Shown piece after piece: positions 1,927 through 13,831 of a stretch of 64,000 nucleotides of DNA. Positions within the stretch are counted from its first letter, which is position 1. The number at the start of each line of letters is the position of its first letter. Origin of the DNA: a phage; the NCBI GenBank assembly GCA_020241125.1, contig GCA_020241125.1_4708.1. The stretch is one strand, 5' to 3'. Below the pieces are notes generated by a model. It was not told the DNA's origin. It saw only the letters and a program-made list of their open reading frames with translations, and made no database searches. Position numbers and translations under genes: made by a program.

Positions 1927-4836
1927 ATGAACGATATAAATAAAGGGCGCGTCGCCCTCGAACGTCAAATGAGCAATAATGACGTTGCGAAGGCACTCAT
2001 GAACAAATTTGTCGCTCCTGCTCCGCAGTCACGTCTTTATAATACACGTGATGCGGAAGGAGCGAACGGTCGTTTCGGGTTAGTTGTTCCCGACCAAATG
2101 ACGATGAACACGGTTACGCGTGCGACCGCGACAAACATCGAGGATAATAAAAACATCCTCGAGCTGTTCCCTGAACTTAAACGCGTGATGCAGATCTATG
2201 TTGCCGCGTTGACGAACCCTAACGATCTTAAGACGGTCGAGATGTTTATCGACAGCGAAGATTTCCCCGGCAGAGTCGCAGAAATCGTTCAGCCGATGAT
2301 CGATACCATCGACACGCATTTTAAGAATATCTATAAAATAAAGACGCTTATCCCTCGTATCATCGAAGACGTCTTCTTTATCAAGGGCAGTTATAACTTC
2401 GTTGTTCTGCCGGAAAGCACGCTCGACCGCGCCATTAATGGTAACGGTCAACTGAAACTTGAAGAATACGGATTTAAAGACAACCATTTTGCAAGTTGGG
2501 GGCTTCTAGGTAACGACAGTCGCAAACGCCACGAAAATCAATTACCTGCGACGGTTTCGATGGAAGATTATTTCTCGGGTGTTAATGAAACCATACCGTA
2601 CGATCCTGTTGTTCGCATAGACAGCATCAAGTTTACCAATACCCTGCTTCGCGATAAGGACGGTAAATTCATTGAAGCGAAGATCGATATTCCGGATATG
2701 GTTACGGTTGTCGATAACCCAGACATCCTCCGCATGCCTATTCTGCATCAACGTCGAGCAGCGACAGCAGTGCAGCGTGCGTTACGCGCAAACACGTTAG
2801 GAGGTAGTGGTTTGGTAACGCTGTCAGGCGATCCGACCCTAACCGCTAACCGACGTGAGCTGTCGCAAGAACAGGTTAACGAGATCTGGAATAAGCTCAA
2901 CATCCAGCGCCACACCAAGGTATCGCCCGTTTACGCGCTGGCAACCCCAGATACGCTTGATCGTCAAAGCGTTGGCCATCCTGGCGTGATGCATGTACCA
3001 CCTGAGGCATTAGAACCCGTACATGCGCCCGGTGATCCTGAGAACCATATCGGGTATTTGGTTCAGTTGGATGAGTTTGGTTATCCAGTACGTTTGGTTG
3101 AAGATGCGGCGTATTACAAGCAGTTGGAAGGTCGGTTGTCGAAGATCACCGCAGATATCGCAGGTACGTCAAGCAACGGCATGGCGAGCGAGATGATTGG
3201 TGCAGCCAAGAACATGATCCAAGGTACGTCATGTAATCAGGTAGACATGTCGGCCTTCGTATCATCGTACGAATCGCTGATGCAACGTTACATTGTCGAA
3301 CGTATCGTTAACGGTTATCTTGGCAGTGCGGTGGAGATCGGTGCGACATCATCGTTTTATCTGTCGATGCTTGCTCGTAGCCTCGCTCACAAGCAGACCC
3401 GTGTTTTGTTTATTCCTCGAGAGATGGTGACTTACATCGCCTATGAATACAACAAATACGGTATCGGTCGTTCGCTGCTTGAAAGTACGAAGATGATCTC
3501 ATCGCAACGAGCCATGCTCATGGTTCAAGAACTGATGGCGAAAATCAAAAGTTCGTTGAACTATACGACGCTAAGCGTAATGCTTGAAGACACCGACAGA
3601 AACCCGGTCGATACCGTCGAACAAGCACTGCATAGTTTCGCTCGTGTCTACCAGTCTGGTTTCCCGTTGGGTGAAACTAACCCGATGGATATCATCAACG
3701 CGTACGAACGAAGCTCGATTCGATTGAAGGTTGAGGGGAATAACCCACGCTTCCCGAAATTGAATACAGACGTCAGTGTTGAGCAGCGTAACTATCAGTC
3801 TCCTGATAATGAGCTGATGGATCGTTACCGTCGTGACCATTTCATGGGCTTGGGTGTGTCTCCGGAGATTATCGATACTTCCTACCAATCTGAATTCGCA
3901 GCTTCTGTGATTACAGCTAACGCGATGCAAGAGAAACAGTTCACGGTTTGTCGTGAGGTGATCACGAATGGGTTATCGGACCACATCAAGAAATATACGG
4001 CATACAGTCCCGTGTTGTTGACGTCGTTACGAAACACGGTTCGTGCGAACATGTCTAAGCTTTCCCAGGCACAATTGAAGCAGCTTTTTGGTAGCGATTT
4101 CGAAAACGGTGTTATCCGTAACGTTAACGCCTATCAGGAGATTGACGACCAATCAGCAACAATGGATCTGGATTACACTAAACCAGAAGTCCAGGAAGTT
4201 ATTGCCGATGCTTATGTGTCCATGTTCTTAAACAGCCTGCGTGTGCGTTTACCGGATAGCAATGCCCGTCGCCTTGAAGATCAGGTACGTGAATATAATC
4301 AGTACAAGGAAGCGATTACTGCGCAACTTGATGATTATTTAACGCCTGATTACGTCATGGGTCTGGGTGGGGTTGATGAAACAACGCTGCAGATGATCCG
4401 CGCATGCATTATTGGTACCGCGATGCGTACGTGGGCAAAAGAGAACAACTTCAATCAGGAGCTGGCTGATCTCTTCAGTCTTGACGATAAGAAGAATGCC
4501 GTGCAAGATTGGAAACGTATGTCCATGGAACATATTGAAGTCATGGGTAAATGCATGGGTGATTTTGCATTGTATATTCAGAATCTGACGAAGAAGATTG
4601 AAGAGAAGATGGGAGCTCAAGCACAGGACGGTAGCGTTTCATCTGATGGTTCGTGGTCATCCGATTCAAGTAGCGATACCGGTTCTTCTGATGACTTCGG
4701 TGGCGGTGACGATTTCGGAGATACCGATTTCGATACCGAAACGATGGAGGAAACCTCAACAGAAGAAACAACCACATCTGAGGAAACGACTACCGACACA
4801 ACGTCAGAAGACGATACTTCAGGTGACATTGTCTAA
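1927..4836 (+). CDS. large hypothetical virion-type protein (969 aa) with acidic Ser/Thr/Asp/Glu-rich C-terminal tail
   Basis: Long ORF; AAGGAG 9 nt upstream of ATG; C-terminal ~70 aa low-complexity (SSDSSSDTGSSDDFGGGDDFGDTDFDTETMEE...); portal-like size but no motif recognised. Confidence 0.8.
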   Translation: MNDINKGRVALERQMSNNDVAKALMNKFVAPAPQSRLYNTRDAEGANGRFGLVVPDQMTMNTVTRATATNIEDNKNILELFPELKRVMQIYVAALTNPNDLKTVEMFIDSEDFPGRVAEIVQPMIDTIDTHFKNIYKIKTLIPRIIEDVFFIKGSYNFVVLPESTLDRAINGNGQLKLEEYGFKDNHFASWGLLGNDSRKRHENQLPATVSMEDYFSGVNETIPYDPVVRIDSIKFTNTLLRDKDGKFIEAKIDIPDMVTVVDNPDILRMPILHQRRAATAVQRALRANTLGGSGLVTLSGDPTLTANRRELSQEQVNEIWNKLNIQRHTKVSPVYALATPDTLDRQSVGHPGVMHVPPEALEPVHAPGDPENHIGYLVQLDEFGYPVRLVEDAAYYKQLEGRLSKITADIAGTSSNGMASEMIGAAKNMIQGTSCNQVDMSAFVSSYESLMQRYIVERIVNGYLGSAVEIGATSSFYLSMLARSLAHKQTRVLFIPREMVTYIAYEYNKYGIGRSLLESTKMISSQRAMLMVQELMAKIKSSLNYTTLSVMLEDTDRNPVDTVEQALHSFARVYQSGFPLGETNPMDIINAYERSSIRLKVEGNNPRFPKLNTDVSVEQRNYQSPDNELMDRYRRDHFMGLGVSPEIIDTSYQSEFAASVITANAMQEKQFTVCREVITNGLSDHIKKYTAYSPVLLTSLRNTVRANMSKLSQAQLKQLFGSDFENGVIRNVNAYQEIDDQSATMDLDYTKPEVQEVIADAYVSMFLNSLRVRLPDSNARRLEDQVREYNQYKEAITAQLDDYLTPDYVMGLGGVDETTLQMIRACIIGTAMRTWAKENNFNQELADLFSLDDKKNAVQDWKRMSMEHIEVMGKCMGDFALYIQNLTKKIEEKMGAQAQDGSVSSDGSWSSDSSSDTGSSDDFGGGDDFGDTDFDTETMEETSTEETTTSEETTTDTTSEDDTSGDIV

Positions 4837-4922: not shown

Positions 4923-5195
4923 TTACGAGGTTAACCACGATTCAATTGTGGTGAGTTTGCTTCTCAGTACGCGCCAACTAGGGTGTGGTGGGATCACAGC
5001 GCCTTTGTCGATTACGGTTAGCTGAACCTGGTACTTCTGTTGCATACGCGCTACCGTGTCGCTTATCGAGAGGAAAAGCTGGTAACGTTCATATGCCGTC
5101 AGTTCACTGTCCTGTTGAACTGCGTTGGCCGCTAACGTAATTTCGCGTAAGTCCTTTGCATCCACAGAGACGGTAATGAGTTTATATTGACTCAT
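4923..5195 (-). CDS. hypothetical protein (90 aa)
   Basis: ORF with AAGGAA SD 5 nt upstream of ATG. Confidence 0.55.
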   Translation of the reverse strand: MSQYKLITVSVDAKDLREITLAANAVQQDSELTAYERYQLFLSISDTVARMQQKYQVQLTVIDKGAVIPPHPSWRVLRSKLTTIESWLTS

Positions 5196-5256: not shown

Positions 5257-7815
5257 TTACTGCTCTTCACGTTCCAGCAGATACTCGGAAGCGGTAATAC
5301 CGTTTACCGTACGTACTGCTTTCAGACGAGTATCATCGCTCAGAATTACAGTAACAGATTGCAGACCTTTTACTTTGGTTTCGAAGGTCTTGAACACCTG
5401 ATCCAGCATACGAGCAATGCTTGGGTTGGTTGCAGCCGATGCGTGGGTGTAACCGCTTTGGTTCAGCTTCAGAATCTTGGCGTTGGTCGGTACGCGAACA
5501 ACAACATGCGGACGCATCGCGAACACGCTGTGATTGAACCAGTAAGCATCGTTGCTATCTTCGTCGGTAACGATGTCTGGATTAACACGCATATCCTCGA
5601 CAGCCGCATCCGCCAAACGACGTTCGATTTCATCGGCGTCCAGAGAGCCATCTTTCTCCAGTTCTGCACGATACTCACTCATGGCAACCAGATGACGTTC
5701 ACGATTCGCTGCGGATTTTTCGTGAGCGGCTTTCAGGTAGTCATGCATGTTGTACAGTTCTGCCATGGAAAGACGAATGTTCCACTGACCTTCGCCGTCA
5801 CGATTGCAGTAGAGACACTTCAGCATGTTGACCCAGGTATAGTAGCAATTGGAGAATTCATCTTCAATGAACTTCTGGTCCATTTTAAGATCGTGAATCA
5901 GCCAACCGGACAGTTCTCCGATATCATCAACGAAGCTAGAGATGGTGGTTTCAGAGAAGTTCTTCGGTACGATACGTTTGATCAGCTTATTGACGTCTTT
6001 GGTCATGCTATCGTTCAGGAAATGCCAAATACGCAGAGGAATAACATCTCGATACTGTTGCATGATCTGACGATAAGCTTTGATATCGTCGCTACGACCT
6101 TTATCAATAGACAACGCATCCAGGAATTCATGGATTGCATCCAGCTCTTTGTCGGTATAGGTTCCCAGATAGGAATTGACGGTGGCAAGGAATGCTAATG
6201 CGTCGTTTTGGTTAACGTCGGTGTTGGTCTGCTGAATGATTGCCACTGAAGCTTTGGTTTCAGCATCCTCAACGCTTGACGCTGCGATTGCGTCGGTGAC
6301 GGTAAACAGTTTCATTTCGCGCTGCTCACCGACAACGATTGGCTCACGTTGAACCGGTTTGTTAAGACTAACACGAACAACTTCTGCTTGCGCGATGCGA
6401 TCCAGTTTTGCCATTTCCTGCTCTGCCATACGACGAGCGGTTGGATCTGATTCAAGTTCGATGTATTCCACTTCTTCCTCCGTGAGGGATGTAATGTCAA
6501 CAATGGTTTCATGAAGAATTCCGTTTTCGTCGATACGTGCTCGACGAGCGAAGTGCCTGAAGTCATACAACGTCGGCCAACGACTATTAGGTGCAAAGTC
6601 TTTGGCTTTCAGACGCATCTGCATAAATTCTTCATGTTGAACAACACGACCGTAACGCTTAGCATCTTCGGTCGCATCAATTGGATTAACGGTCTTTGTT
6701 ACCGTAGCAGAACGAGCCGTACGAACGGGTTCCGGTTTCACCTGCGCAGGTTCAGGTTGAACGGGTTTCTGCTGCCCAGCCTTAACATGCCATTCTGGCT
6801 CTTCGTACTGCTCAGCAAATTGCTCAGCCGCTGCAAAGATATCGTTGATACCACCAATATCTCCTTCAGGATTTGTCGAGTAAATCCGTGGTTGTGGTGC
6901 CTCGTAACGCGGTGCTGTAGTAGCAGGTACCTCATCAACGATAGGATCGTCATCACCAACATCATACAAACGGTTGAACACACAATCCTTCGAATCAATG
7001 TACGATGGCGCTTGTGGTTGGACAACCGTCGGCCGAGGTTGTGCACCGTATCCTGGTGTTGTTGGAGCCATGCCGCGCATAACTGCCGGACTAGGTTGGT
7101 ATTGCGGTTGCGGATAGGTTCCACCATACATGGCGTACGCAGGCTGTTGTGGTTGACCATACCCGCTGCTAACCATCGCGCTTGCTTGCGGCCCACGATA
7201 AGTCATCCCCATCTGCATCACCTGCTGCTTCAAACCACGTGACTTCTGAGCGATTTGCGCTAGGCTTCCGCTTTTATTCAGCTGCGTGTACTTATTCGCG
7301 GCTTCCGGGTTAATGCGTGATAATTCAATCGCGCGATAATATTCCGGGTACTGATTCGGTTCAAAGAGCCACGTTACAAGATGATACAGCGCAACTGTAC
7401 TCACGGCAGCAGAGACGATCTGGTCATCGGACGCGTTCTGCGGCATCGGGTTGATGTAAGAGAACACGTTCCAACAACAGTCTTCAACAAGAGATTCCAT
7501 CATCATATCGTTATTGGTATAACGTGCGACGAACTCGGTTTGTATTTTGTCTTGCTGAGCGAAGTCTTTCAGGACATTAAAGATGGCTTGACGGATTTTG
7601 ACGATCGTCGCTTCTTGGGTGATGAAGTTATAGTTCTGCTGATATGAGGGTTGTTGGTATTGTGGTGGTTGATAGGCGTTATTCGGGTATGCGCCGTACG
7701 GCGATTGCTGATACTGTTGCTGACGAACCTGTTCAGCCGCATAATTAACCGTGCTCGTATAAGGGTTTTCGCTATAACCCATTTGTTGATACATGTTGTT
7801 ACTGCCATTATACAT
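5257..7815 (-). CDS. hypothetical protein (852 aa) with Gln/Tyr/Pro-rich low-complexity regions
   Basis: Long ORF; N-terminus MYNGSNNMYQQMGYSENPY...QPPQYQQPSYQQNY and internal GYGQPQQPAYAMYGGTYPQPQYQP. Confidence 0.8.
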   Translation of the reverse strand: MYNGSNNMYQQMGYSENPYTSTVNYAAEQVRQQQYQQSPYGAYPNNAYQPPQYQQPSYQQNYNFITQEATIVKIRQAIFNVLKDFAQQDKIQTEFVARYTNNDMMMESLVEDCCWNVFSYINPMPQNASDDQIVSAAVSTVALYHLVTWLFEPNQYPEYYRAIELSRINPEAANKYTQLNKSGSLAQIAQKSRGLKQQVMQMGMTYRGPQASAMVSSGYGQPQQPAYAMYGGTYPQPQYQPSPAVMRGMAPTTPGYGAQPRPTVVQPQAPSYIDSKDCVFNRLYDVGDDDPIVDEVPATTAPRYEAPQPRIYSTNPEGDIGGINDIFAAAEQFAEQYEEPEWHVKAGQQKPVQPEPAQVKPEPVRTARSATVTKTVNPIDATEDAKRYGRVVQHEEFMQMRLKAKDFAPNSRWPTLYDFRHFARRARIDENGILHETIVDITSLTEEEVEYIELESDPTARRMAEQEMAKLDRIAQAEVVRVSLNKPVQREPIVVGEQREMKLFTVTDAIAASSVEDAETKASVAIIQQTNTDVNQNDALAFLATVNSYLGTYTDKELDAIHEFLDALSIDKGRSDDIKAYRQIMQQYRDVIPLRIWHFLNDSMTKDVNKLIKRIVPKNFSETTISSFVDDIGELSGWLIHDLKMDQKFIEDEFSNCYYTWVNMLKCLYCNRDGEGQWNIRLSMAELYNMHDYLKAAHEKSAANRERHLVAMSEYRAELEKDGSLDADEIERRLADAAVEDMRVNPDIVTDEDSNDAYWFNHSVFAMRPHVVVRVPTNAKILKLNQSGYTHASAATNPSIARMLDQVFKTFETKVKGLQSVTVILSDDTRLKAVRTVNGITASEYLLEREEQ

Positions 7816-7849
7816 TTCTTACGATCCTTTTTATTTATTCGGTTATGTG

Positions 7850-9646
7850 TCAATCGATTATGTCGTGATCGTTAATTTCTACAATTTCTTCATCGAATCG
7901 ACCGACGTCTTTCTTCAAGCCTGCATTGGTTGCTGCAACGTCATTTGCAATTTGTGGGGTAATGATTAACCGACCGCGCTCATCGATAGGTGCGTACATA
8001 CTGAACTTCTGACGTCCGGTTGGTTCGGAGTGTGGAAGATTCAGATAGCTTGCACAGAACGGGATGGAACCACTAACCAAACGACTCTCGTCAGCCAATG
8101 CAGCACCGCCTGCGTTTTGGCTCTGGAGAACAACATGCGTGCTCACTTTGAACAGCATGCAATCACCTGGTGACTGAATCGATGTTGCCACTTTCTCACG
8201 TTTATCACGATTGCTCTGGATATTGAGAATCGCTTCCGTTGCAACTTGATTTCGCAACGCCTTCTGTACATCGCGATTGGTCATCTCTTTACGGTTGTTC
8301 TGTCGTTTACCACGTTCTGTGGTTTTAAGATGGAACCCCAGTTTAAAGATGCTCTTACGCACATCCTCCATGACATATTCCAACACCATCAATTCCTTAC
8401 CGAACATCGTCGTGGTATCAACACGACTCATTTCGATAGTGACATTGTCAATCAGATACGCCATAAATTCGTAGAAGTCGTCGCAAGGAATATTTTCCTG
8501 TTTGAACTTCTTCTGCTGAATCTCGTCAACGTAAAGATCGAGACTGTCGATGTGGTGATTTACATCACGTAACAAACGCGCATCCGCGTTGTTGTTATTA
8601 AAGATAATCAAACCGAGTAATGTACGCCAATGGTCTGGCGCATTCGCGAACTCCTCAACCGGATAGTCTTCCGGAAAACGATCGTAATAACGGTCGATGA
8701 GATACAAGAATGCACCGACAAGGCCAAGAACAATACGTTCCGTGCCTCCGCGTCTTACAGCAATTTGAATATCAGGATGTTTGTAACGTACAGCGCTAGC
8801 GCTACGGCTTTTACCGCTTTTGCTGATACTAAAGCCTTTAGGAATAACCCCCATGGTGCGATAGATTACCCATTGGTCACGCGGAAAATCGCGTTCAGCA
8901 AGGTTCCGTCCGGTTACGGCTTCGACACCTGCAAAACGTCGGAAACACTCACCCACCCCATACTTCGCAAAGAGATAGTGACCCAGTGTGGTTACGCTGG
9001 TGTGGTTGATGTTGTCACCGTTCACTTTACTTTGTTTAGTAAGATGGTAGATTTGCGACCAGGGTAACGACAGGTAATGACGATAATCGATACCGGTCGG
9101 TGTATCATTGCTCAGGAACTGATACGGTGTACGTTTAACCGTGATTTTGTCACGCGGAAGCATGATGAACGCCATGTCTTTCGTGTAACTGATTACCGGG
9201 TCAGCGAGCACTGCACTGAGAATGAAGTTCGCACCACGTAGACGCATTTTACCACCCTGACCTACCGCGGGTAATAGGAGAGGATGTCGGATAATGCAGT
9301 AGTCCTTTCCGGGTTCACGACGGTCACCTGATTCCATCGCGCCGTACCAGCGGAATTCTAGCATCACCATAAACACATCGGATGGCGCAAGGTCGAAGGT
9401 CAGCTTACCGCTATCCTTCCCTTTGGTTTTCTTTCCTCCGCTTAAGTAGTGGAACTGTTCGCGGGCCATACAGCGACGCAGGCCATGATACACCAGATCC
9501 TTAGGTAAACTATCTTTGCTGTTCCGCCAAAGACGATCAACATAGGACTCAACATCTTGCATCTTATCGACGACGATGTTGCGTGCTATCTTCTCGTTCA
9601 TCTTCGGTGCAAGCCCAGCGACAGCTTTGCAGAATCTAGGATCCAT
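7850..9646 (-). CDS. hypothetical protein (598 aa)
   Basis: ORF-track start is GTG at 9649; ATG at 9646 has AAGGAG 6 nt upstream. Confidence 0.8.
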   Translation of the reverse strand: MDPRFCKAVAGLAPKMNEKIARNIVVDKMQDVESYVDRLWRNSKDSLPKDLVYHGLRRCMAREQFHYLSGGKKTKGKDSGKLTFDLAPSDVFMVMLEFRWYGAMESGDRREPGKDYCIIRHPLLLPAVGQGGKMRLRGANFILSAVLADPVISYTKDMAFIMLPRDKITVKRTPYQFLSNDTPTGIDYRHYLSLPWSQIYHLTKQSKVNGDNINHTSVTTLGHYLFAKYGVGECFRRFAGVEAVTGRNLAERDFPRDQWVIYRTMGVIPKGFSISKSGKSRSASAVRYKHPDIQIAVRRGGTERIVLGLVGAFLYLIDRYYDRFPEDYPVEEFANAPDHWRTLLGLIIFNNNNADARLLRDVNHHIDSLDLYVDEIQQKKFKQENIPCDDFYEFMAYLIDNVTIEMSRVDTTTMFGKELMVLEYVMEDVRKSIFKLGFHLKTTERGKRQNNRKEMTNRDVQKALRNQVATEAILNIQSNRDKREKVATSIQSPGDCMLFKVSTHVVLQSQNAGGAALADESRLVSGSIPFCASYLNLPHSEPTGRQKFSMYAPIDERGRLIITPQIANDVAATNAGLKKDVGRFDEEIVEINDHDIID

Positions 9647-9685
9647 CACACACTCCTTTCAGAAAGTTGCTTAAGCAGATTAAAG

Positions 9686-11370: not shown

Positions 11371-11459
11371 TATCACGGTGCCGGATGAATGTCCGGTGCA
11401 ATGAAACCATCCGCAACGTTGTCGTCAAGAATATCATCCAACGAAGCAGCTACGGTAGT

Positions 11460-13682
11460 TCAGTTAGTCTGAACAGGCAGCTTGATGTTTTCAGTGTAGA
11501 CCTTACGCAGGTTCACAACGTTAATCAGACCCAGCAGCGGGCAGTTGTTAACGAAGCGGCAGCGCGGCTGAACCATGGTTTCTTTAGAAACCTGACCGTT
11601 ACGGGTAACCTGAGCAACAGATACCAGTTCCGGTACATACAGGAACATACCGAAGGTCAGCGGATCCGGAGAACCCTGGATACCACGAGACAGGGTCACG
11701 AAGATCTTATCGCGCAGCATGACGTTCGGGTTATCTACAACTACGAAGTTGAAGCTTACACCAACGGTACGGAAATCACCATCGGTCTGCAGGAACTGCG
11801 GGATGTAGTTGTCAGTTGCTACTACGCAACGCGGTTTCTCATCAGCGTTGGAAGACAGCAGCTGCAGAGCTGGCTGATAACCAGACTCGGAGTACATGCG
11901 GTATGCCATCTCACGAATCACGTTCATGATCGCAGCAGACACTTCAGCACGACGTTCTGCAGTGGTGGTACCCTGAACAGATTTCTCCAGGTCCAGATTG
12001 ATTTCTTCGAACCACGGACGGATCAGGTAACGACCGAAACCTTCGATCTGGATGTCACCGAACTGACGGAAGCGAGAGGTCGCAACCGCTTTCAGTGCGT
12101 CTTTGTAGCTGAACAGTTTCTCAACCATCAGGTTGTCGAAACGTGCGTTAGCAGCTTGGATCAGAACGTCCAGGTCAGCAGCGTTTTCTTCCCAATCCAG
12201 CGGACGAGGAATGGAGAACGGAGCCAGCAGGCCGATTGCGTAACGTTCTTGCTTCATGTTGAAGTCAAGGTGCTTACCGCGCTCACGACGGTTGCTGTTG
12301 TTACGGCGGATACGCAGTTCGTAACCAACCAGTTTGAAGCTCAGGTCTTCAGCCAGTTGTTTGAACTCTTCGCTCTTACGCGGTTGTTCGATGTTGTCCT
12401 GATCAACCAGGCGATACAGTTCAGCGTTAGCGCCGTTAACACGCAGACCGGCTTTCTCTACGTTGGAAGAACCGTAAACTTCGATCGCCAGCTGAGCAGC
12501 AGATTTCGCATCGATGATGTCCTGCAGCGCTTCAGCTTTCGCGCCTTTAACGTCTTTGGTGTTCTCATCAACGAAGATGGAGTGGGTGTCGAACGCCAGG
12601 GTCATTTTGCGGAAGTCGCCTTCCAGGGATTTCTGGAAACCGTTGGTGATCAGACCAGATACGTCGAACGGTACGTAAGAGGTTTTGCTGTGCTTGGTAG
12701 ATTTGATTTCCACCAGGATTTTGGTCAGCGTGATCTGGGCGTCCAGCGCGTCGGTGTTGTCGCTGTAACCGTTAGCCAGGATGCTATCGTCTTCAGCAAT
12801 ACCGATCATGTCGATCAGTTTATCAACAGCCAGGTAAGACGTTTTGTAAGTTACGCCTTTAATTTCGATGTCGCGCGGAGCAACGATAGCTTTGTCAACG
12901 AAGTACTGTGCGTTAGCATCGTCAGCACGATAGATCGGATGCAGATCGGTCACGTCGTTGGACAGAACGTCGTTGTACATGAACGCATCCAGCAGCGGAC
13001 GACGTACCCAATCAGCCGGAGTACCGTCAGCGTTACGACGCAGGTGGTTGAACACCAGCGGACGACGGAAAGATACGTCGTAACCGATCTGGTTCGGAGC
13101 CAGAACGATGGTGTTGTACAGTTCGTTACCCATGCGGCTCAGACGAGAAGCCTTCACGTTGAACACAACGGAGTACGGCATCATGTCACGCAGTTCTTTC
13201 TGGTCGTAGGACAGCTGAACCAGTTCTTCAGATTCGCAACCGCAGGAATCAGCAGCCATCATGACGAAGTTAGAGCTGTCAACTTCACGGCCAGACGGAG
13301 TGGTGCTGATGTTCATGGAACGTGCTTGTTTAGCATATTCTACCGGGTTACCATGAGCCAGCATGATCAGTGCTGCTGCACGAGCCTGCTGTGCGTTCAT
13401 GGTGAACAGCTGTTCTTCAATACGCTGCTTCTCTTCCGGAGTGGTGGTTTCGAAGCCCAGCATGGACAGAACCGGTTCTTCGGCTTTACGGATGTCGCTG
13501 CTGAAGCTCTTAACATCCATTTCGTTAACCAGTTTGTCCATGGATTTGAAATCAACCTTAGAAGCAGATTCCATAGACAGGAAGGTGTTCTCCAGACCTT
13601 TGTCTGCTGGTTTGCTACCATTAGCGGTCAGGAACTGGCGAGTGGCCGCGACCTGTTGGCTAAGAAGGGTTTTATCATTCAT
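11460..13682 (-). CDS. putative major capsid protein (740 aa; size comparable to phiKZ-type MCP)
   Basis: Strong host-optimal codon usage suggesting high expression; AAGGA SD 8 nt upstream of ATG; functional call from size and codon usage only. Confidence 0.5.
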   Translation of the reverse strand: MNDKTLLSQQVAATRQFLTANGSKPADKGLENTFLSMESASKVDFKSMDKLVNEMDVKSFSSDIRKAEEPVLSMLGFETTTPEEKQRIEEQLFTMNAQQARAAALIMLAHGNPVEYAKQARSMNISTTPSGREVDSSNFVMMAADSCGCESEELVQLSYDQKELRDMMPYSVVFNVKASRLSRMGNELYNTIVLAPNQIGYDVSFRRPLVFNHLRRNADGTPADWVRRPLLDAFMYNDVLSNDVTDLHPIYRADDANAQYFVDKAIVAPRDIEIKGVTYKTSYLAVDKLIDMIGIAEDDSILANGYSDNTDALDAQITLTKILVEIKSTKHSKTSYVPFDVSGLITNGFQKSLEGDFRKMTLAFDTHSIFVDENTKDVKGAKAEALQDIIDAKSAAQLAIEVYGSSNVEKAGLRVNGANAELYRLVDQDNIEQPRKSEEFKQLAEDLSFKLVGYELRIRRNNSNRRERGKHLDFNMKQERYAIGLLAPFSIPRPLDWEENAADLDVLIQAANARFDNLMVEKLFSYKDALKAVATSRFRQFGDIQIEGFGRYLIRPWFEEINLDLEKSVQGTTTAERRAEVSAAIMNVIREMAYRMYSESGYQPALQLLSSNADEKPRCVVATDNYIPQFLQTDGDFRTVGVSFNFVVVDNPNVMLRDKIFVTLSRGIQGSPDPLTFGMFLYVPELVSVAQVTRNGQVSKETMVQPRCRFVNNCPLLGLINVVNLRKVYTENIKLPVQTN

Positions 13683-13831
13683 TGAAAGTATCCTTTACAG
13701 AATTAACTTATATAAGTCGGTCGATAGACCATAGCGTACACGCGTGCATGCGCCACTATAGTATCAGTAAACACTTACCGTTATTGAGGTCGTGATACAA
13801 CACTAAAAATGCCGCATAACTTTTCCCTACG

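Follow-up and report, generated by a model that had tools for sequence, protein, structure and literature searches.

The window analyzed here is a stretch of 64,000 nucleotides of phage DNA (contig GCA_020241125.1_4708.1 of GenBank assembly GCA_020241125.1), whose DNA has 97.9% identity to that of Escherichia phage vB_EcoM_Goslar, a Chimalliviridae jumbo phage that forms a nucleus. On the minus strand, positions 5257-7815 hold an intact open reading frame (ORF) with an ATG start that encodes 852 residues and corresponds to Goslar_00038 (gp38), annotated as "hypothetical protein". The two proteins share 98.7% amino acid identity; eight of the 11 differences between them fall in residues 217-372, and residues 273-384 form the fastest-evolving part. 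The start of the ORF is separated by 34 nt from the stop of the upstream gene gp39, which encodes the β subunit of the non-virion RNA polymerase (nvRNAP) and is labelled nvRNAP in the Goslar paper. Because no promoter or terminator match lies in this gap, gp38 is likely co-transcribed with gp39. Scans for sigma-70 promoters and for terminators around the gp38 gene gave matches at or below chance.

According to a first-pass annotation of the window, gp38 carries two low-complexity stretches rich in Gln, Tyr and Pro, one N-terminal and one internal, and both are borne out by the composition of the protein. Residues 1-65 consist of 22% Gln, 18% Tyr, 14% Asn, and 9% Pro, and residues 205-285 of 16% Pro, 12% Gln, 11% Tyr, and 10% Gly. 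The richest 60-residue stretch of the protein contains 42 Q/Y/P/G/N residues, compared to a mean maximum of 25 and a highest value of 34 in 20,000 shuffles, and when the first 100 residues are set aside, the internal region scores 35 out of 60, while the shuffles reach 33 at most. Neither region was thus equalled in any of the 20,000 protein shuffles. In the window as a whole, the runner-up ORF scores 29/60, and the other 47 of the 48 ORFs of at least 150 residues all remain far below 42/60. Charged residues are scarce in both regions. There are just three in residues 1-64, where 12 tyrosines follow each other at a spacing of ~5 residues (gaps of 7, 5, 5, 6, 10, 5, 3, 5, 5, 5, and 4), and just three in residues 204-272, every one an Arg, with eight tyrosines within residues 206-272. 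Tandem Repeats Finder detected no DNA tandem repeat, and a search of the flagged regions for G-x-x-G pairs or periodicity was likewise negative.

The same annotation described the composition as prion-like or phase-separating, which holds only in part. The regions are indeed polar, Tyr-rich, and poor in charge, and they resemble a sticker-and-spacer arrangement in having predicted coil, polar spacers, and evenly spaced tyrosines, with a dimeric core that is known by homology only. However, the Q/N criterion of Michelitsch and Weissman asks for at least 30 Q+N per 80-residue window, and the maximum in the window protein is 26; two relatives reach the threshold, P0004 with 30 and Eowyn gp146 with 33. 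Prion-like domains are also judged by depletion of both charge and proline, and although charge is scarce here, proline makes up 9% of the tail and 16% of the linker.

Database searches with gp38 return few relatives. Pfam gives only sub-threshold noise for it (Cas9_C_2, with 18.6 bits where 27 are required) and nothing for 10 orthologues, PHROGs has no family for it, and in a tblastn search against phages Goslar is the sole match. A search of 5.8 billion proteins retrieved four close relatives with 80-99% identity, and an exhaustive HMMER search added one more, P0005, which is 33% identical and is encoded on a syntenic metagenomic chimallivirus contig. No further relatives were found with a Goslar-clade profile, and a merged profile of 15 genera gave no match at E ≤ 1e-3. 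The gene order, on the other hand, is shared widely: helicase, gp119, major capsid, gp122, nvRNAP β, gp38-like gene, and portal follow each other in 15 chimallivirus loci, compared either whole or over the part covered by each stretch. A hypothetical protein of 690-980 residues is encoded after the gp123-like gene in phiKZ, PhiPA3, 201phi2-1, Eowyn, Ea35-70, PCH45, and RP31, and likewise a protein of this size in FBKp24, Aphrodite1, CF8, Miami, Haymo, BONAISHI, and SNUABM_54.

Profile comparison links these proteins to gp38. An hhalign comparison of the Goslar-clade profile with a profile of phiKZ gp124 and 201phi2-1 gp204 gave a probability of 97.1% and an E-value of 6.5e-11 over 242 columns, and profiles of the phiKZ group also connect to the orthologues of Eowyn, Ea35-70, FBKp24, and SNUABM_54. 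With phmmer, P0005 matches 201phi2-1 gp204 at an E-value of about 1e-3 (Z = 1e5). The multiple alignment contains two common blocks, at approximately Goslar residues 593-640 and 790-852. The N-terminal parts of the Goslar clade and of the phiKZ-type proteins show no demonstrable homology, aligning with an hhalign probability of 1.8%, and a Foldseek search of BFVD returned as best matches uncharacterised myovirus proteins of 663-739 residues, with E-values of 4e-3 to 0.1 that are not significant. phiKZ gp124 itself differs by one residue from chain A of PDB entry 9RP3, "Gp316/JADA" (Pa36 gp316), where JADA stands for Jumbo phage Avs5 Defense Activator. Because profile comparison and strict synteny point to the same protein, window gp38 is assigned as the Goslar-clade orthologue of phiKZ gp124, or JADA. 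It has three features of this family, namely predicted homology in the C-terminal domain, a locus beside the nvRNAP gene, and a layout of N-terminal domain, linker, and C-terminal domain. PicA and ChmC were ruled out as identities of gp38, since these are Goslar gp174 and gp176. In PhiPA3 (NC_028999, 6149-8255), the JADA orthologue is split into gp140 (261 residues) and an unannotated ORF of 519 residues in another frame, over which gp141 is annotated on the opposite strand; a frameshift, an error in sequencing, or misannotation probably accounts for the split.

JADA was named by Muralidharan et al. (Mol Cell 2026, PMC12931631), who found it to be an early, abundant, and essential protein, always encoded directly downstream of an nvRNAP subunit and sensed by the host defence Avs5. 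It consists of an N-terminal domain (residues 1-170), a disordered linker, and a dimeric C-terminal domain (PMC12931631). The C-terminal domain, a rigid dimer with a novel fold, is sufficient for Avs5 activation, whereas the N-terminal region and the linker are not visible in the cryo-EM density (PMC12931631). In cells without infection, JADA-mScarlet is distributed diffusely; upon infection, JADA concentrates in foci at the early-infection (EPI) vesicle, and the authors suspect that it acts in early transcription (PMC12931631). In agreement with the importance of the protein, antisense knock-down of phiKZ124 decreases the yield of phage and, at 30 min, strongly disturbs phage transcription (PMC12571901). 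The orthologue in Churi has been observed at 15 min as a non-structural protein. The text and supplement of the JADA paper do not discuss phase separation, condensates, or low complexity (PMC12931631). This protein family has thus been described before, together with its locus and the disordered linker, and the membership of Goslar is implicit in an earlier supplementary table, the PSI-BLAST table of Prichard et al. 2023, where Goslar_00038 is grouped with PHIKZ124 under RAY gp004. What is new here is the explicit placement of gp38 in the JADA family, the clade-specific Q/Y/N tail and C-terminal-domain insertion, and evidence that the prion-like flavour of the linker is kept by purifying selection and reappears in several genera, a single clade being the exception.

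AlphaFold2 (AF2) models, computed from a shallow clade alignment of five sequences, predict a helical domain at residues 60-203, with predicted local distance difference test (pLDDT) values of 53-73, and nearly no secondary structure for residues 1-59 and 203-376 (pLDDT 23-37). Except for short helices at residues 20-31 and 209-215, the flagged regions are predicted as coil, and no strand is predicted in them. The C-terminal domain is modelled as an α/β domain with low confidence, the pLDDT being below 50 for most of it. Disorder prediction had been suggested by the first-pass annotation as a check; in the AF2 models both regions are predicted to be unstructured, and the internal one falls on the JADA linker that lacks cryo-EM density. 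From its N-terminus, the protein would comprise a Q/Y/N-rich tail (residues 1-64) and a helical domain (65-203), then a linker that is P/Q/Y/G-rich in its first part (204-272) and acidic in its second (273-384), and finally the C-terminal domain (385-852). Judging from the models, the internal low-complexity region at residues 204-272 corresponds to the disordered JADA linker (phiKZ residues 171-269), and residues 1-64 are a clade-variable tail preceding the N-terminal domain. The acidic part of the linker contains 19% D+E and 11% P (measured over residues 284-406) and a single short predicted helix at residues 323-336. Directly after the low-complexity part lies the sequence LYDVGDDDP, whose "YDV" is found at the matching relative place in phiKZ gp124 (AYDVPGSSP) and 201phi2-1 gp204 (LYDVPVNEP), and which may be a linear interaction motif. 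The Goslar-clade insertion in the C-terminal domain (…HDYLKAAHEKSAANRERHLVAMSEYRAELEKDGSLDADEIERRLADAAVEDM…) is missing from the 13 orthologues outside that clade.

To what extent the two regions are constrained is apparent when the gene of the window is aligned by codons with those of Goslar and of three metagenomic relatives. The ratio of non-synonymous to synonymous substitution rates (dN/dS) is 0.08-0.14 for the N-terminal tail and 0.08-0.15 for the low-complexity linker, compared to 0.03-0.16 for the N-terminal domain and 0.01-0.09 for the C-terminal domain. Both low-complexity regions are under purifying selection. In the close relatives, the length of the tail changes only through in-frame indels of 9, 3, and 1 codons, while its composition is kept, and the internal region shows zero indels across homologues of 80-99% identity. 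The combination of in-frame indels and dN/dS values of 0.08-0.15 shows that both regions are translated and constrained. Relative to P0003 and P0004, the linker is even 83-85% identical, whereas the folded N-terminal domain is merely 75-76% identical. In the more distant P0005, the position and polar character of the regions are retained, but not their sequence, and the tail lacks Tyr and Pro. The first-pass annotation had named ordered β-rich fibre repeats, conserved among homologues, as the finding that would speak against it. Of this, the conservation is indeed observed among close relatives, but no such repeats are predicted.

Beyond the clade, a hydrophobic-poor segment of 100-230 residues separates the two domains in all 16 orthologues examined. 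In Goslar, phiKZ, 201phi2-1, Eowyn, Ea35-70, SNUABM_54, and BONAISHI, this segment is rich in Q/N/P/G and contains 4-9% acidic and 3-9% basic residues. N-terminal tails rich in Q/N/P/G/M are found in the Goslar clade, Ea35-70, SNUABM_54, Aphrodite1, CF8, and Miami. One of the metagenomic relatives, P0003 (Logan SRR7039243, 3001-5592), is a mosaic with respect to the window: its C-terminal 468 residues have a dS of 0.09 and a single non-synonymous change, whereas its N-terminal half has a dS above 1 and 76% amino acid identity, a pattern that suggests an intragenic recombination event close to the disordered linker.

Table 1. Positions in the window of the gp38 gene's features and of the neighbouring genes.
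Feature	Position	Strand	Remarks
AGGA Shine-Dalgarno	7825..7828	-	9 nt 5' of the ATG
N-terminal low-complexity tail, residues 1-64	7624..7815	-	Q/Y/N/P-rich, predicted disordered
N-terminal helical domain, residues ~65-203	7207..7623	-	AF2 pLDDT 53-73, predicted all-helical
Internal P/Q/Y/G-rich low-complexity region, residues 204-272	7000..7206	-	Composition; between N- and C-terminal domains
Second, mixed acidic linker part, residues 273-384	6664..6999	-	Composition, AF2
Motif LYDVGDDDP, residues 283-291	6943..6969	-	Directly after low-complexity linker
C-terminal domain, residues 385-852	5260..6663	-	Conserved family core; homology to dimeric JADA domain
Profile-aligned stretch, residues 408-676, versus phiKZ gp124 residues 368-629	5788..6594	-	hhalign
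Goslar-clade insertion in C-terminal domain, residues ~677-760	5536..5787	-	Helical, charged, ~85 residues
gp39, nvRNAP β subunit (phiKZ gp123 / RAY gp002 homologue)	7850..9649	-	Upstream, co-oriented neighbour
Portal protein gp36	1927..4836	+	Convergent downstream neighbour
ORF of 90 residues (Goslar gp37)	4923-5195	-	Between JADA orthologue and portal

Some features of the neighbouring genes (Table 1) deserve mention in their own right. The portal protein gp36 ends in an acidic low-complexity tail of ~65 residues, rich in Ser, Asp, Thr, and Glu (residues ~905-969, …SSDGSWSSDSSSDTGSSDDFGGGDDFGDTDFDTETMEETSTEETTTSEETTTDTTSEDDTSGDIV), a disordered region of a different type beside gp38. A counterpart of Goslar gp37 with 91-110 residues is conserved in all close relatives and has no family match. 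Further away, an ORF of 766 residues at 11385-13685 (plus strand) lies antisense over the whole major capsid gene at 11460-13682 (minus strand, 740 residues) and is probably a shadow ORF, though an unusually long one.

The first-pass annotation took gp38 to be a phage structural protein, a premise on which proteomic data are available. Label-free mass spectrometry (MS) of CsCl-purified Goslar virions identified gp38 by 26 peptides with 28% coverage, from which about 25 copies (range 17-39) were estimated (bioRxiv 10.64898/2026.04.21.720040). In the same preparation, subunits of the virion RNA polymerase (vRNAP) are present at 7-21 copies, compared to 0.14 copies per virion of the nvRNAP protein gp39, the operon neighbour of gp38, ~0.5 of other nvRNAP subunits, and 0.1 of the DNA polymerase. 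The level of gp38 is thus ~180 times that of gp39 and near that of the vRNAP subunits. Clearly non-structural proteins are nevertheless found at similar or higher levels, with ~126 copies of chimallin, ~171 of PhuZ, ~76 of ChmC, and ~20 of thymidylate synthase per virion. gp38 is not among the modelled structural components of the virion, and the records of phiKZ and 201phi2-1, which mark virion proteins identified by MS, leave its orthologues unmarked. The examined part of the Goslar MS table lists no tryptic peptides from the low-complexity regions, which is uninformative because these regions are nearly devoid of Lys and Arg. The excess of gp38 in virions could be packaged cargo or sticky co-purification with shell-associated material. 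A structural role is thus not established for gp38, which by orthology belongs with an early, essential EPI-vesicle protein and whose ~25 copies stand beside non-structural proteins.

We consider it probable that gp38 is a JADA orthologue whose flagged regions form a disordered tail and an inter-domain tether, and not fibre repeats or amyloid cores. By homology, the C-terminal domain (residues 385-852) would dimerize, and the linker would let the two N-terminal domains of the dimer range widely around the C-terminal core. Being poor in charge and rich in Tyr and Gln, the linker would also add weak multivalent contacts, and these could help the protein to gather in foci at the site of early transcription, given an infection-specific partner. 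Selection maintains this make-up of the linker, most likely on account of such contacts.

Several observations weigh against this interpretation. The timing, essentiality, localisation, and dimeric state of JADA all come from orthologues in Pseudomonas phages, which are less than 20% identical to gp38, and not from Goslar. With a Goslar-only profile, the top PDB match is 9RP3, yet at an E-value of 1.3. The low pLDDT in the flagged regions is consistent with disorder, but it is no proof of it, because AF2 assigned low confidence to every part of its models of the full-length protein and of residues 1-400 (mean pLDDT values of 37 and 43). As to the sticky character of the tether, which we infer, the linker of the FBKp24/Haymo/PCH45 clade is a polyampholyte with ~20% acidic and ~20% basic residues, phiKZ has no N-terminal tail, and the tail is short or absent in distant orthologues. 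The Q/Y/P flavour is therefore not required for the core function of the family.

The other explanations differ mainly in how much they ask of the composition. At one end, the Q/Y/P regions could drive true phase separation, the protein itself forming a hub without a membrane at the EPI vesicle or the nascent nucleus. The sequence makes phase separation by these regions plausible: they have a sticker-and-spacer make-up, with a Tyr approximately every five residues and very few charges, the dimeric core would supply multivalency, and both regions are kept by purifying selection. The foci formed by JADA upon infection, the condensation of ChmC of the same phages through its N/G-rich tail, and the ~180-fold excess of gp38 over gp39 in virions, which could reflect sticky assemblies, are in line with this. 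On the other hand, the diffuse JADA-mScarlet signal in uninfected cells argues that the protein does not condense alone at those expression levels, and neither the polyampholyte linkers of one clade nor the tail-less phiKZ protein fits such a scaffold. On balance, we regard a condensate scaffold as unlikely, although it is the strongest competitor of the tether. At the other end, the regions might be passive, entropic spacers of which only the length matters, with the composition drifting within the clade. Such drift would explain why the sequence is not conserved beyond the clade, why P0005 keeps only the position, why the flavour switches to highly charged in FBKp24/Haymo/PCH45, and why most differences between the window and Goslar accumulate in residues 217-372. 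It is harder to reconcile with a dN/dS of ~0.1, with an identity to P0003 and P0004 that exceeds that of the folded N-terminal domain, with the absence of indels from the internal region in close homologues, or with the same Q/N/P/G-rich, charge-poor flavour in phiKZ, 201phi2-1, Eowyn, Ea35-70, SNUABM_54, and BONAISHI, and we give it a distinctly smaller chance than the scaffold.

An amyloid or prion-forming element, or a repetitive structural element of a fibre or the virion, appears highly improbable. Its appeal lies in a Q/N/Y-rich composition like that of the Sup35 N domain, in the position of the gene between capsid and portal genes, and in the recovery of 26 peptides and ~25 copies from purified virions. 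Yet chimallin, PhuZ, ChmC, and thymidylate synthase are as abundant or more so in the same preparation, and the phiKZ and 201phi2-1 orthologues are unflagged in records where virion proteins identified by MS are marked. Amyloid formation is unlikely because the regions contain 9-16% proline; Toombs et al. (2010) reportedly found that proline and charge reduce prion propensity. Neither tandem repeats nor G-x-x-G periodicity nor predicted strands were found; without periodicity and without strands in the prediction, a fibre or collagen-like repeat is ruled out.

Compared to characterized systems, gp38 is closest to JADA/phiKZ gp124, with which it shares a homologous C-terminal domain, the locus beside the nvRNAP β gene, the three-part layout, and a P/Q/G-rich linker of low charge followed by a "YDV" motif. 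It differs from phiKZ gp124 by its low sequence identity (<20%), the extra Q/Y/N tail of 64 residues, the extra helical insertion of ~85 residues in the C-terminal domain, and a linker richer in Tyr. Early expression, essentiality, EPI-vesicle localisation, and Avs5 activation are known only from the Pa36, phiKZ, and Churi orthologues and, like dimerisation, would extend to Goslar gp38 by homology. A second comparison is offered by ChmC (Goslar gp176 / PhiPA3 gp61), a nuclear-shell-associated RNA-binding protein whose disordered N/G-rich tail is required in vitro for condensate formation with RNA (PMC11077065). Like gp38, ChmC combines an oligomeric folded core with a polar disordered region of low charge, followed by an acidic patch. 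Unlike gp38, it has a Whirly fold and a tail that is N/G-rich, just 40-70 residues long, and C-terminal, and condensation has been demonstrated for ChmC only. E. coli SSB likewise has a charge-poor G/Q/P-rich linker followed by an acidic motif (DFDDDIPF versus LYDVGDDDPIV in gp38), and the SSB structure 1eqq ranks second to 9RP3 among the PDB matches of the Goslar profile, at an E-value of 6.6 for a match that is compositional and not significant. There is, however, no homology between the two proteins, the SSB linker lacks Tyr, and the acidic motif is C-terminal in SSB but internal in gp38. The SSB linker reportedly promotes phase separation (Harami et al. in 2020). Finally, the flagged regions resemble Sup35 N and the low-complexity domain of FUS (FUS LC) in being rich in Q/N/Y/G, poor in charge, and regular in their Tyr spacing, but they are shorter and proline-rich, and their 26 Q/N per 80 residues remain below the threshold of 30.

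A bolder proposal is that the Tyr/Gln/Pro-rich regions of JADA, displayed on the dimeric core, give rise to a selective condensate on the vesicle of early infection, a hub that would be seeded by the ~25 pre-packaged copies per virion and would gather nvRNAP subunits, mRNA, and ribosomes and/or aid the handover of the genome to the nascent chimallin nucleus. We think this doubtful, a little more so even than passive spacers. If true, the JADA hub would be a bacterial-virus counterpart of the phases formed by FG-nucleoporins or by the C-terminal domain (CTD) of RNA polymerase II. If the regions are instead passive spacers, the finding is an ordinary one. In either case, JADA is an essential protein that the nucleus-forming jumbo phages have conserved and that triggers an immune sensor of the host. 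The flagged regions of Goslar can now be mapped onto the linker of this family, whose polar, aromatic, charge-poor make-up is under selection and recurs across genera, and they offer a tractable E. coli system for studying a possible role of weak multivalent contacts in organising the first stage of infection.

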